Part shown: positions 1 to 4,974 of the stretch, piece by piece
How the letters are laid out: each line of letters opens with the position of its first letter
Position numbering within the stretch: the stretch's first letter is position 1
Origin: a virus
Taxonomy: Duplodnaviria; Heunggongvirae; Uroviricota; Caudoviricetes
DNA length: 4,974 bases
Virus record (IMG/VR): IMGVR_UViG_2684622552_000003
Strand: one strand, 5' to 3'
Made by a program: the position numbers and the translations under genes
Notes under the pieces: generated by a model
What the model was told of the DNA's origin: nothing
Database searches by the model: none
What the model saw: the letters and a program-made list of their open reading frames with translations, nothing else

Positions 1-1074
1 CAGCCGAGTAATGATGCGTCCGGCTATCTGGATTTTTTCAAAGGAGAGATAGGGAAAACACATCTGGCCCAGGAGCTGTGGACACAAATTGATAACGGTC
101 AGCTTGCCCCGGATCTGGCTGAAATCAGGACATCCATTACGAATGTCAGCAATGAAATCACCGAGACCGTTAACAAGACACTGAAAGACCAGAGTGCAGC
201 GATCCAGCAGATACAGAAGGTTCAGGTTGACACCAGTAATAACCTGAACAGTATGTGGGCTGTGAAGCTGCAACAGATGAAGGATGGACGCCTTTATATT
301 GCGGGTATCGGTGCCGGTATTGAGAATACCCCGGACGGCATGCAGAGTCAGGTGCTTCTGGCTGCAGACCGGGTGGCATTTATTAACCCGGCGAATGGTA
401 ACACCACTCCTGCACTGGTCACACAGGGCGGACAGACGTTTATTAATGAGGCGCTGATCAAGTTCCTTATTGCTCCCACGATTACCAGTGGTGGTAATCC
501 TCCGGCATTCTCCCTGACACCTGACGGCAAGCTGACTGCTAAAAATGCGGATATCAGTGGCAGTGTGAATGCGAACGCCGGGACGCTCAACAATGTCACG
601 ATTAATGAGAACTGTCTGATAAAAGGAAAACTGTCTGCCAGTCAGATTGAGGGCGATATTGTCAAAGCGGTGGGAAAGGCTTTTCCACATGATCCGCGCG
701 AATCAGAATTTAAACCGTGGCCGTCAGGTACGATTACTGTGAGGATAGATGATGATCAAAAATATGACAGACAAATTGTCATTCCTGCTGTTGCATTTCG
801 TGGGGCGAAGCACCGGCAGGCATCCACAAACAGTGAATATTATTCATCCTGTCGTCTTGTTGTAAAAAAGAATGGTTCTGTAATTTATGACAAATCGACC
901 AACGATGTTACAGCCATTTACACAGGTATCATGGATATGCCAGCCGGTTCTGGAGGAATAACTCTTGAGTTTTCAGTTTCTGCGTCAAACGGGAATTATT
1001 ATCCTTCAGCGACTATCAGCGATTTGCTTGTGGTCATTATGAAAAAATCCACAGCTGGTATCAGTATCAGCTGA
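1..1074 (+). CDS. J: Central tail fibre / host specificity protein J, C-terminal ~358 codons (5'-partial; start lies upstream of the window)
   Basis: Frame 1 is open from base 1, with no stop before the TGA at 1072-1074; the ORF track only reports it from the first internal Met at 253. The translation (…[41 protein letters not shown]…[45 protein letters not shown]…[18 protein letters not shown]) closely resembles the receptor-binding C-terminus of lambda gpJ as I recall it. Confidence 0.9.
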
Positions 1075-1141: not shown

Positions 1142-1213
1142 ATGCGTAAAGTATGTGCAATTCTTTTGTCCGCAGCAGTATTCCTGACCGTATCGGGTAC
1201 GACAGTGAGTGCA
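1142..1213 (+). other. Sec signal peptide of Lom (24 aa, predicted cleavage after VSA)
   Basis: Basic N-terminus (MRK), hydrophobic core (VCAILLSAAVFLTV), and a small-residue VSA motif before AEHQ. The cleavage site is judged by eye, not by a predictor. Confidence 0.6.
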
Positions 1214-1741
1214 GCAGAACACCAGAGCACATTAAGCGCAGGATATATTCATGCTCATACGAAAATGCCAGGCGGTGATAATCTGAATGGTATTAACGTG
1301 AAATACCGTTATGAATTTACGGACACGCTTGGGATGGTGACGTCATTCAGTTATGCCAACGCCGAAGATGAGCAAAAAACGCATTACAGCGATACCCGCT
1401 GGCATGAAGATTCCGTTCGTAACCGCTGGTTCAGCGTGATGGCGGGGCCGTCTGTACGCGTGAATGAATGGTTCAGCGCATATGCGATGGCGGGTGTGGC
1501 TTACAGCCGTGTTTCGACTTTCTCCGGGGATTATCTCCGCGTAACTGACAACAAGGGGAAAACGCACGATGTGCTGACCGGAAGTGATGATGGTCGCCAC
1601 AGTAACACGTCTCTGGCGTGGGGGGCTGGCGTGCAGTTTAACCCGACCGAATCCGTGGCCATTGATATTGCTTATGAAGGCTCCGGCAGTGGTGACTGGC
1701 GCACTGACGGTTTCATCGTGGGTGTCGGTTATAAATTCTGA
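1142..1741 (+). CDS. lom: Lom: Ail/Lom/OmpX-family outer-membrane beta-barrel protein (prophage moron, lysogenic-conversion type), 199 aa
   Basis: Complete ORF from ATG 1142 to TGA 1739-1741. It has an N-terminal signal peptide (MRKVCAILLSAAVFLTVSGTTVSA|AEHQ) and the C-terminal signature …SLAWGAGVQFNPTESVAIDIAYEGSGSGDWRTDGFIVGVGYKF with a terminal aromatic residue, typical of an OM beta-barrel and near-identical to the lambda Lom C-terminus as I recall it. Its position between J and stf matches lambda and Rac. Confidence 0.93.
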   Translation: MRKVCAILLSAAVFLTVSGTTVSAAEHQSTLSAGYIHAHTKMPGGDNLNGINVKYRYEFTDTLGMVTSFSYANAEDEQKTHYSDTRWHEDSVRNRWFSVMAGPSVRVNEWFSAYAMAGVAYSRVSTFSGDYLRVTDNKGKTHDVLTGSDDGRHSNTSLAWGAGVQFNPTESVAIDIAYEGSGSGDWRTDGFIVGVGYKF

Positions 1742-1805: not shown

Positions 1806-4800
1806 ATGGCAGTAAAGATTTCAGGTGTACTGAAAGACGGCACAGGGAAACCGGTACAGAACTGCACCATTCAGCTGAAGGCAAAACGTAACAGTACCAC
1901 GGTCGTGGTGAACACGCTGGCCTCAGAAAATCCGGATGAAGCCGGGCGTTACAGCATGGACGTTGAGTACGGTCAGTACAGCGCTATTCTGATGGTGGAA
2001 GGATTCCCGCCGTCACATGCCGGGACCATCACCGTGTATGAGGATTCAAAGCCGGGGACGCTGAATGATTTTCTCGGTGCCATGACGGAGGATGATGCCC
2101 GTCCGGAGGCACTGCGCCGTTTTGAACTGATGGTGGAAGAGGTGGCGCGTAACGCGTCCGCAGTGGCACAGAACACGGCAGCCGCGAAGAAGTCAGCCAG
2201 CGATGCCAGCACATCTGCCAGTGAGGCGGCAACCCATGCGACTGATGCCGCAGGCTCAGCACGCGCAGCCAGCACGTCCGCCGGACAGGCCGCATCGTCT
2301 GCTCAGTCAGCATCTTCCAGCGCAGGAACGGCATCAACAAAGGCCACGGAAGCGTCAAAAAGTGCTGCCGCTGCAGAGTCCTCAAAAAGCGCGGCGGCCA
2401 CCAGTGCCGGTGCGGCAAAAACGTCAGAAACGAATGCGGCAGCGTCACAACAATCAGCCGCCACTTCTGCATCCACCGCGACCACGAAAGCGTCAGAAGC
2501 TGCCTCCTCAGCCAGGGATGCGTCGGCTTCAAAAGAGGCGGCAAAATCATCAGAAACGAGCGCAGCCTCGAGCGCCAGTAGTTCCGCTTCCTCGGCAACG
2601 GCGGCAGGCAATTCCGCGAAAGCGGCAAAAACGTCCGAGACGAACGCTAAGTCTTCTGAAACGGCAGCGGAACAGAGTGCCTCCGCAGCAGCAGACTCAA
2701 AAACAGCGGCTGCATCATCTGCCAGCGCCGCGTCAACAAGTGCCGGGCAGGCCTCAGCCAGTGCCACCGCTGCCGGAAAGTCGGCAGAAAGTGCCGCATC
2801 GTCTGCTTCAACAGCCACAACGAAGGCTGGCGAAGCCACTGAACAGGCCAGCGCAGCAGCGAATTCTGCTTCCGCAGCGAAGACATCCGAAACGAACGCG
2901 AAAGCGTCGGAAACCAGCGCAGAATCCTCAAAGACGGCTGCCGCATCGTCAGCCAGTTCGGCGGCGTCATCGGCATCATCTGCGTCTGCTTCAAAAGATG
3001 AGGCGACCAGACAGGCGTCAGCGGCGGCAGAGAGTGCGTCAACGGCATCCACGAAGGCGACAGAGACGGCAGGAAGTGCGACGGAGGCAGCTCAGAGCAA
3101 AAATGCGGCTGAATCCGCGGCAACGCGCGCCGAGACAGCTGCAAAACGGGCAGAGGATATTGCATCTGCCGTGGCGCTTGAGGATGCAAGCACGACGAAA
3201 AAAGGGATAGTACAGCTCAGCAGTGAGACCAGCAGCGAATCTGATACGCTCGCAGCAACACCGAAAGCGGTAAAGGCTGCAAACGACAACGCTGAAACAC
3301 GCCTTCGGAAAAACCAGAACGGGGCAGATATACCTGATAAAGACACCTTCGTAAAAAATATTGGCGCAGCGAAAGCTGCCAGCGGCAATATCAGCATCGG
3401 AGGAGACAGCAATAACTGGACGACGGCGCAATTTATCGAGTGGCTGGAGTCTAAGGGGGCGTTCAATCATTCATACTGGATGTGTAAAGGCTCATGGGCT
3501 TACGCTGCCAATAAAATCATCACGGATACCGGTTGTGGGAATATACAACTTTCTGGCGCTGTAGTTGAGGTTATGGGGGGTCGAGAGGCTATGACTATTC
3601 GCATCACCACCCCCACGACCGCAACGAACGGCGGAACCGTCAAGGCACAATTTACCTACATCAACCACGGTGACAATTATGCGCCAGGCTGGAGACGGGA
3701 CTTTAATCGAGCTGGTGATTCAATGTCAGGCCAGTTAACTTTGGCGGATATGTCACAGCCATTAAGAACACCAGGTGGTGGCATATTTGCCAATGATGGC
3801 AACTTGTATATCAATAAACCGGGTTTCGCTGGATGGATTGATGCGCTCTTTTTGAAATTAACAGGAGGCACAATAACCGGGTCGCTTACCGTTAATGGTG
3901 GCATTAAGGGTAATGCTTCAACGGCTACGAAGCTTCAAACGCCAATAAATATTAATGGTGTTAAGTTTGATGGCTCAGGTGACATCAACATTAATACCTT
4001 AGTGTCCAGAGGTATGGTGGCCGCATTAAGTGGCAATACACAAGGCACCCCAGGCGTTCAGATGTATGAAGCGTATAAAAATGGCTACCCCACGACTTAC
4101 GGCAATGTGCTTCATATGAAAGGTGCGAATGCTGCAGGAGAGGGTGAATTGCTTATCGGCTGGAGTGGTACAAGCGGTGCCCATGCTCCGGCATTTATTC
4201 GTTCACGACGGGATGCTACCGACGCAAACTGGTCGCTATGGGATCAGCTTTACACAACGGCTTATCCTCCTTCAGAGCTTTATCCTGCAGGGGCACCGAT
4301 ACCGTGGCCATCAGACACAATTCCATCTGGTTATGCTCTGATGCAGGGGCAGACTTTTGATAAATCAGCATATCCGAAACTTGCAACCGCTTACCCATCT
4401 GGTGTGATCCCTGATCTGCGTGGATGGACAATTAAGGGTAAACCCGCCAGTGGTCGCGCTGTATTGTCTCAGGAACAGGATGGTATTAAATCGCATACCC
4501 ACAGTGCCAGTGCATCCAGTACGGATTTGGGGACGAAAACAACCAGTTCGTTTGATTATGGTACTAAGTCCACGAATAACACCGGGGCGCATACACATAG
4601 TATTAGCGGGACAGCAAATAGTGCAGGTGGGCACCAACACCAGAGTTCTGGACCATATGCGAATTCTAATAGAACTGCACTCTTTCCTAACGGTTATACC
4701 CAGGTTTCAGTCACAAACGCACCAGTTGTACCACAGGAATCTGGCTCAGGTACGAGCCGTATATCAGGGAAGACATCATCAGATGGAGCACATACCCACT

Positions 4801-4974
4801 CATTGTCTGGTACTGCCGCATCTGCAGGGGCACACGCACATACTGTCGGTATTGGTGCCCATGCACACACTGTGGCGCTGGGTGCACATGGACACACCAT
4901 CACCGTTAACGCTGCTGGTAACGCGGAAAACACCGTCAAAAACATCGCATTTAACTATATTGTGAGGCTTGCAT
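1806..4974 (+). CDS. stf: Side tail fibre protein Stf (StfR-like long form), 1056 codons in the window; 3'-partial only in that the stop codon begins at the final base 4974
   Basis: My own codon-by-codon translation of frame 3 from ATG 1806 shows no stop through GCA at 4971-4973. This ORF is not in the supplied track, presumably because it lacks an in-window stop. The N-terminus [37 protein letters not shown]…[16 protein letters not shown] and the C-terminus …[10 protein letters not shown]…[33 protein letters not shown]…GIGAHAHTV…[28 protein letters not shown] match lambda Stf and Rac StfR as I recall them. The final residues RLA are the normal Stf C-terminus, so the gene ends 2 nt beyond the window. 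Confidence 0.9.
2163..3170 (+). repeat. In-frame periodic coding repeat within stf: 24 consecutive 14-codon (42-nt) units, Ala/Ser/Thr-rich, Ala at position 1 in 22 of 24 units
   Basis: Cutting the Stf translation into 14-mers from [14 protein letters not shown] (codon at 2163) gives 24 units, for example [14 protein letters not shown] / [14 protein letters not shown] / [14 protein letters not shown] / [14 protein letters not shown] / [14 protein letters not shown] / [14 protein letters not shown]. At nucleotide level the near-identical motif GC(A/G)AA(A/G)ACaTC(A/C)GA(A/G)ACGA recurs at 2415, 2541, 2625 and 2877, and the spacings of 126, 84 and 252 nt are all multiples of 42. Confidence 0.85.

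Follow-up and report, generated by a model that had tools for sequence, protein, structure and literature searches.

The Ala/Ser-rich array of a lambdoid side tail fibre is a heptad repeat and very probably forms its proximal coiled-coil rod

We analysed a stretch of 4,974 nucleotides (nt) from IMG/VR virus record IMGVR_UViG_2684622552_000003 (Caudoviricetes), hereafter the window, with a focus on an Ala/Ser-rich array at positions 2163-3170, which an earlier note on this DNA had described as 24 units of 42 nt, or 14 residues, in the shaft of a side tail fibre (Stf). The window is the tail-fibre end of a lambda-like prophage, with the gene order J-lom-stf, all on one strand. It contains the C-terminal 357 residues of gpJ (frame 1), and its final base is reached by the stf frame, so that the stop codon, and any tail fibre assembly gene (tfa) downstream of stf, would lie outside. 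The last gene encodes a lambdoid side tail fibre of the Stf/StfR family, because PF08400, the J-lom-stf order and the matches to PDB entries 9e7m and 2xgf and to gpS of phage Mu all occur together. The PF08400 profile (phage_tail_N) matched in full length on amino acids (aa) 1-134 (E=7.2e-71; 236.9 bits versus a cutoff of 26.6) and PF07484 (Collar) was found by Pfam search on aa 829-876, with aa 135-828 assigned to no Pfam family. PDB sequence matches reveal Stf as a mosaic (Table 1), and PHROG tail-fibre families match the array on its own.

The array spans 1,008 nt (24 × 42) in frame with the 1,056-aa open reading frame (ORF), equivalent to Stf aa 120-455, and holds 48 heptads of the pattern A-x-x-S-A-x-x, with Ala at position a in 45 of 48, Ser at d in 37, Ala at e in 34, and polar, variable residues at the four remaining positions (b, c, f and g). 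Compared with residue shuffles, amino-acid self-identity was 0.432 at lag 7 (z=9.8), and all lags that are multiples of 7, up to 70, gave z from 6.9 to 9.8, lag 14 being the weakest among them. This phasing is far above what composition provides, confirming the view that the region is more than a random Ala/Ser bias. Nucleotide identity versus codon shuffles gave z=6.0 at lag 21 and z=3.9 at lag 42. Fourier power at a period of 7 aa was 1324 for Ala and 1018 for Ser (medians, 30 and 35), and for Ala it reached 3338 at 3.5 aa, but at 14 aa it was at or below background for both residues (24 and 8, respectively). The nucleotide spectrum was similar, with power of 4240 at period 21 and 5977 at 10.5 against a median of 488, but 566 at period 42, which leaves no 42-nt spectral line.

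Stacked as 14-mers, the array gives columns that are alike in pairs: Ala at positions 1 and 8 (22 and 23 of 24 units), Ser at 4 and 11 (18 and 19) and Ala at 5 and 12 (16 and 18). Odd and even heptads did not differ (chi-square, p 0.11 to 0.66), and permuting the order of heptads yielded 14-mer column entropy that was equal or lower in 27% of trials (p=0.27). The true repeat is 7 residues (21 nt), with each 14-mer composed of two equivalent heptads, and a 42-nt unit is rejected because the lag-42 peak is a mere multiple of 21. Thus, the reported count of Ala at the first position of 22 of 24 units was reproduced, but the 14-residue period built on it was not, given the background power at period 14, the equivalence of the two halves and the odd heptad differences between relatives described below. 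The autocorrelation peak that had been expected at 42 nt is present, as a multiple of 21, but the corresponding Fourier line is absent. The motif AKTSETNA, said to recur at four unit starts, is found at three of these (2415, 2625 and 2877), while that at 2541 reads AKSSETSA.

The heptad register extends slightly beyond both ends of 2163-3170, from aa 99 (nt 2100) to around aa 459 (nt 3182), for a total of about 49-51 heptads without a phase break; a seven-phase hidden Markov model (HMM) trained on the array called aa 114-457 with zero phase shift. The Ala/Ser rod as we delimit it (2142-3176) encloses the segment noted earlier, the 336 residues of which include 126 Ala, 86 Ser, 39 Thr, 9 Gly and 0 Pro. 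Ala at heptad position a is spread over four codons (GCG 15, GCA 14, GCC 12 and GCT 4) and Ser at d over six, and this mixture of codons indicates that the constraint acts at the protein level, rather than on a repeat in the DNA. Other frames across the array of ~1 kb contain few stops (0 in the +1 frame and 1-2 in two minus frames), and long alternative-frame ORFs lie at 2203-3210 (+), 2303-3052 (−), 2029-2628 (−) and 2647-3189 (−), among them one of 335 aa that is rich in Arg, Gln and Pro and one of 249 aa that is rich in Ala and Asp. We rejected these as genes and attribute them to the scarcity of stops that GCN/TCN/ACN codon bias brings about.

Alpha-helical coiled coils are typified by small apolar residues that recur with a 7-residue period and a dominant 3.5-residue harmonic. 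Consistent with this, an AlphaFold2 monomer model of Stf aa 89-520, based on an alignment of 25 homologues, contained helix at aa 100-299 and 308-457 (assigned with DSSP) and zero strand within the array, with a predicted local distance difference test (pLDDT) score mostly between 70 and 87 in the first half and a mean of 69. The Stf of phage Ur-lambda comprises a collar (residues 1-91), a linker (92-101), a proximal coiled coil (102-393) and a hinge (394-422) (Yu et al. 2025, PMC12617516). In cryo-electron microscopy (cryo-EM) of that phage, three linkers join three collar domains to one trimeric bundle, so that 12 Stf N-domains make four fibres, and cryo-electron tomography (cryo-ET) and cryo-EM show the proximal domain as a straight rod with rigid-body motion (PMC12617516). 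We equate the array with this proximal rod because, apart from one 105-aa gap, it aligns position by position with a lambda-type allele (L063); in the linker region the same alignment is without gaps, and the AlphaFold2 helix begins at aa 100. Overall, the region very probably encodes the alpha-helical coiled coil that forms the proximal rod of this lambdoid side tail fibre, with a length set by the number of heptads. Of the two regular fibrous folds put forward earlier, the coiled coil is supported by the 7/3.5 periodicity and the modelled helix, whereas the beta-helical shaft is not supported, the model having no strand there.

Table 1 Features of the window and of Stf, with positions numbered from the first base of the window.
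Feature	Position in window	Strand	Stf residues	Basis or remark
gpJ (tail tip/central fibre), 3' end	1-1074	+		PF12421 Ig_GpJ_C, E=2e-39; PF09327, E=7e-31
lom (Ail/Lom outer-membrane beta-barrel)	1142-1741	+		PF06316, E=4.9e-123
stf side tail fibre gene, 1056 codons	1806-4973	+		Open frame; PF08400; PF07484; PDB matches
Match to PDB 9e7m chain Ta (tail fiber protein, 94 aa, N-terminal collar)			1-94	phmmer, E=2.9e-51
Match to PDB 5yvq (Mu tail fiber protein S)			437-524	E=1e-16
Match to PDB 8ju3 (Mu tail fiber protein S/S'), best stretch	3288-3716		495-637	E=5.8e-83
Match to PDB 2xgf (long tail fiber protein P37, T4 gp37 needle tip)			825-1056	E=7.5e-79
N-terminal collar domain	1806-2078	+	1-91	9e7m match; limits from Ur-lambda (PMC12617516)
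Flexible linker	2079-2108	+	92-101	Placed by homology to lambda Stf
First four heptads, hydrophobic core L103, F106, M109, V110, V113, V120	2100-2183	+		Heptad register listing
Uninterrupted A-x-x-S-A-x-x array, ~49 heptads	2142-3176	+	113-457	Periodicity, HMM, AlphaFold2 helix
AKTSETNA copy 1, from heptad position a	2415-2438	+		Repeat family D4
AKSSETSA variant	2541-2564	+		Family D4; 83% nt identity to copy 1
AKTSETNA copy 2, with an in-phase mosaic breakpoint recurring at its 3' end	2625-2648	+		Matches in H40 and H67-H69 end at ~2644-2648
15-heptad block (105 aa) missing in lambda-type alleles	2730-3044	+	309-413	Single 105-aa gap versus L063
AKTSETNA copy 3	2877-2900	+		Family D4; 72% nt identity
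Last two heptads, larger hydrophobics again (I452, V456, L458)	3150-3191	+		Heptad listing; anchor kept in alleles
GIVQLSS motif, start of conserved segment common to Mu gpS	3204-3224	+	467-473	5yvq match
T4 gp37-like receptor-binding needle tip, His-x-His repeats	4278-4973	+	825-1056	PDB 2xgf

Ur-lambda Stf (PMC12617516; 9e7m) resembles the window protein in its collar domain, its J-lom-stf context, its gp37-like C-terminal end and the Ala/Ser heptad array itself, which aligns residue for residue on either side of one gap. The window allele differs from the lambda type by an additional 15 heptads (aa 309-413) and by a different and longer middle (Mu gpS-like, aa 495-637), for a total of 1056 aa versus 767 aa in L063. 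By global alignment to L063 the single gap of 105 aa equals 15 × 7, and lambda records match the window in two pieces and are 315 nt shorter, as is also seen for record H66. It is this block that separates the two main length classes, of 49 and 34 heptads.

We then compared alleles from the IMG/VR set, in which 80 loci share the N-domain and 78 alleles were scorable. Among 66 unique colinear alleles, polymorphic columns were infrequent at core positions (14% at a, 14% at d and 12% at e) compared with the remaining positions (41% at b, 49% at c, 45% at f and 37% at g), as would be expected of a buried a/d(/e) seam. The spacing from MVEEVARNA to the 13-residue C-terminal anchor of the rod was 339 aa, the same as in the window, in 75 of 78 alleles; the three exceptions differed by -105, +4 and -3 aa. 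These 75 alleles share the array spacing despite total lengths of 652-1194 aa for complete alleles.

A wider sample comprised 150 representatives of proteins with this N-domain, clustered at 50% identity. The heptad pattern follows the N-domain in most of these, with almost never a phase shift, and the arrays comprise between ~3 and 49 heptads, their lengths peaking at around 33-34 and around 49. Of the 25 representatives that keep GIVQLSS, 20 have an F106-to-GIVQLSS distance that is congruent modulo 7, with differences to the window of -46, -32, -31, -29, -16, -15 and 0 whole heptads. The odd values (-15, -29 and -31) exclude a 14-residue unit. Comparison of alleles therefore upholds the suggestion that rod length varies among relatives by repeat number.

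The mechanism proposed alongside it found little support. If the array were a slippage-prone, hypervariable DNA tandem repeat, fibre length would shift often between close prophages, and both the family-wide range of 3 to 49 heptads and small indels at SAST/SAS micro-repeats could be cited in favour. The indels occur in two alleles, one with SAST duplicated (L021, Stf aa ~224; +4 aa) and one with a single SAS lost (L035, aa ~393; -3 aa); both cause the same heptad phase shift, equivalent to a coiled-coil 'stutter', and could be either real micro-slippage or assembly errors. However, Tandem Repeats Finder (TRF) at a low threshold returned two trivial rows only (periods 9 and 21, ~2 copies each), and an array of 21- or 42-nt units was not among its results. 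The DNA identity of heptad units averages 43% (46% for adjacent units), and the longest exact internal repeat is 15 nt. The 75 of 78 alleles of equal array length, with totals that vary so widely, likewise argue against frequent slippage, as do the E. coli matches listed, nearly all of which are single colinear pieces. For the origin of the 15 additional heptads we also rejected a higher-order super-repeat or recent internal duplication, because the top-scoring diagonal blocks of five heptads, which lie at lags of 24, 16 and 12 heptads and reach an nt identity of 0.62, fall within the null of shuffled heptad order (maximum 0.607 +/- 0.021; max 0.695). Slippage is thus an improbable account of the array, and we propose that infrequent events of in-phase recombination or deletion, rather than frequent slippage, gave rise to the length classes.

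Breakpoints within the array point to where such exchange may occur. Matches to phage and E. coli records (H40, H67-H69) end at window positions ~2644-2648, just past AKTSETNA copy 2. Two Stf alleles, one from IMG/VR (L068) and one from E. coli elppa6 (L118), have an N-domain and array identical to the window up to copy 2 (aa 281), but after nt ~2648 they continue in phase into a shorter SETNAK-type array that leads to an unrelated S74-peptidase/pyocin-knob tip. In the E. coli record (L118:3207-6986), RefSeq splits the continuous frame into a 'partial' Stf pseudogene and a separate coding sequence.

Several observations weigh against a continuous heptad-built coiled-coil rod. The core is atypical, being small and partly polar, with Ser at d, Ala at a and e and almost no large hydrophobics over ~340 aa; canonical hydrophobics, in place of which Leu, Ile or Val would be usual, occupy the core in the flanking heptads only, and although position a is Ala in 45 of 48 heptads, d is Ser in 37. 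The modulo-7 distance is not kept in 5 of 25 representatives, and two close alleles carry the +4 and -3 aa indels described above. Sequence matches in PDB cover only aa 1-94 and aa 437 onward, with no deposited atomic model of the array. AlphaFold3 folds full-length lambda Stf in a manner inconsistent with cryo-ET (Yu et al. 2025, PMC12617516). Finally, our AlphaFold2 monomer folds back, with a break of pLDDT<50 at aa 300-307 (nt 2703-2726). In the model this break is probably an alignment-gap artefact, because it adjoins the gap in the lambda-type rows (aa 309). It also adjoins the edge of the 15-heptad block, and a real flexible point is the alternative to an artefact.

The fold-back raises the question of another bundle topology with a small-residue a/d/e core, either antiparallel and Alacoil-like or of higher order. 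Small residues at these positions are known from Ala-rich tetrameric silk coiled coils and from Alacoil packing, and the AlphaFold2 monomer turns at aa 300-307. AlphaFold3 behaves likewise for lambda Stf, but that folded prediction contradicts cryo-ET, and the bundle seen by cryo-EM is trimeric (PMC12617516). As the AlphaFold2 break also coincides with the lambda-type alignment gap, and is probably an artefact, we regard a different topology as very unlikely.

It is also very unlikely that the array is a disordered low-complexity Ala/Ser linker, with a periodicity that is the relic of an ancient duplication. The extreme composition (126 Ala, 86 Ser and 39 Thr in 336 residues), the absence of a Pfam family over aa 135-828 and a mean pLDDT of only 69 would suit such a linker. 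A relic would lose phase, however, yet ~49 heptads are unbroken, polymorphism at core positions is three- to fourfold lower than elsewhere, indels keep the heptad frame, and the lambda homologue is seen as a straight, rigid-body rod (PMC12617516). A genuine 14-residue (42-nt) unit of a non-coiled-coil fibrous fold, for example a triple beta-helix, is barely credible, since the clean 14-mer columns and the lag-42 peak that recommend it are explained by paired heptads, the spectrum and the odd heptad counts refute it, and the array has modelled helix instead of strand, 0 Pro and 9 Gly in 336 residues and dominant periods of 3.5 and 7.

Taking the array as the proximal coiled-coil rod, three Stf chains would pair in parallel as a trimer by homology to Ur-lambda Stf, each contributing one unbroken helix with Ala at a, Ser at d and Ala at e; this mode of packing is our inference from the published lambda structure. 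The collar domain (aa 1-91) would, by analogy, anchor the fibre at the junction of tail tube and tip, and the rod would start just past this collar and the short linker, carrying the hinge, distal shaft and gp37-like tip away from the tail. Side fibres would then reach the cell before gpJ, as described for Ur-lambda (PMC12617516). The hydrophobic heptads at both ends of the rod may clamp the register of the Ala/Ser core, with the first four heptads as a possible N-terminal nucleation clamp. Coiled coils rise by ~0.148 nm per residue, and at this rise ~358 helical residues would give a rod of ~53 nm, predicted to be ~15-16 nm longer than that of the lambda type, which has 15 heptads fewer.

The array is common among E. 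coli prophages. It was matched in 4182 of 5426 complete E. coli genomes, with 8834 matching places in all, and 3577 genomes had a match covering at least 80%. The best of these genomes contains 92% of the window at 97.6% identity, and none holds the whole window. The best protein matches are 91-96% identical over aa 1-500. In stfR of the Rac prophage of E. coli K-12 MG1655 (H48), the array is colinear with that of the window, without an indel and at 92.5% nt identity; K-12 StfR and alleles annotated as 'prophage tail fiber N-terminal domain-containing protein' differ from the window in distal modules and tip types only. An allele of exactly 1056 aa with a 49-heptad array was observed in Escherichia albertii NBRC 107761 (L098), and the window may thus derive from an Escherichia other than E. 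coli or from a strain yet to be sampled. Phages with a 49-heptad Stf include 2H10, Turner and the PhiR29 series. Chi sites (GCTGGTGG) were found on neither strand of the window.

An Stf N-terminus with 90% identity was also observed on very low-coverage contigs in ~25 assemblies of unrelated bacteria (L083-L097, L099, L100, L104, L107, L109, L112, L114 and L116), including Leeuwenhoekiella, Pseudomonas, Shewanella, Oceanobacillus, Kitasatospora and Desulfosporosinus. Several of these contigs are ~48.4-48.5 kb, and one (L083) has an ORF of 401 aa, similar to the frameshifted orf-401 of laboratory lambda. These assemblies look to be contaminated by phage lambda DNA.

Together, these results place the array as a known domain of a known protein, in an allele of the commonest length class, and as an ordinary prophage feature. 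The A-x-x-S-A-x-x rule with a Ser-at-d core and the whole-heptad length classes were not found stated in the cited literature, and both refine the known picture without adding a new kind of feature. Small-residue cores occur in other Ala-rich coiled coils, including the alanine zipper of Lpp. The Ala-rich coiled coils of honeybee silk (PMC12284834, PMC6403662), with small-residue core heptads, are a functional analogy only; silk forms a heterotetramer, and the Stf array alone has Ser at d.

The correction of the unit from 14 to 7 residues matters for unit counts and for the design of in-frame chimeras. N-terminal parts of lambda Stf have already been fused to foreign tips in delivery vectors (PMC11338833), and because natural junctions within the array keep the heptad phase, our results suggest that engineered junctions should do so too. 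The 49-heptad class of the window and K-12 StfR is separated from the 34-heptad class of lambda by one clean 15-heptad block, for which a proximal rod ~15 nm longer is predicted. More tentatively, the Stf rod may represent a distinct 'small-core' class of trimeric coiled coil with end clamps, in which discrete heptad classes (about 3, 17-20, 33-34 and 49 in our sample) act as a ruler of reach and AKTSETNA-like motifs as splice points. If true, conserved in-phase motifs such as AKTSETNA would serve the exchange of distal modules, and the ruler would set the reach of the side fibre relative to the central gpJ fibre.

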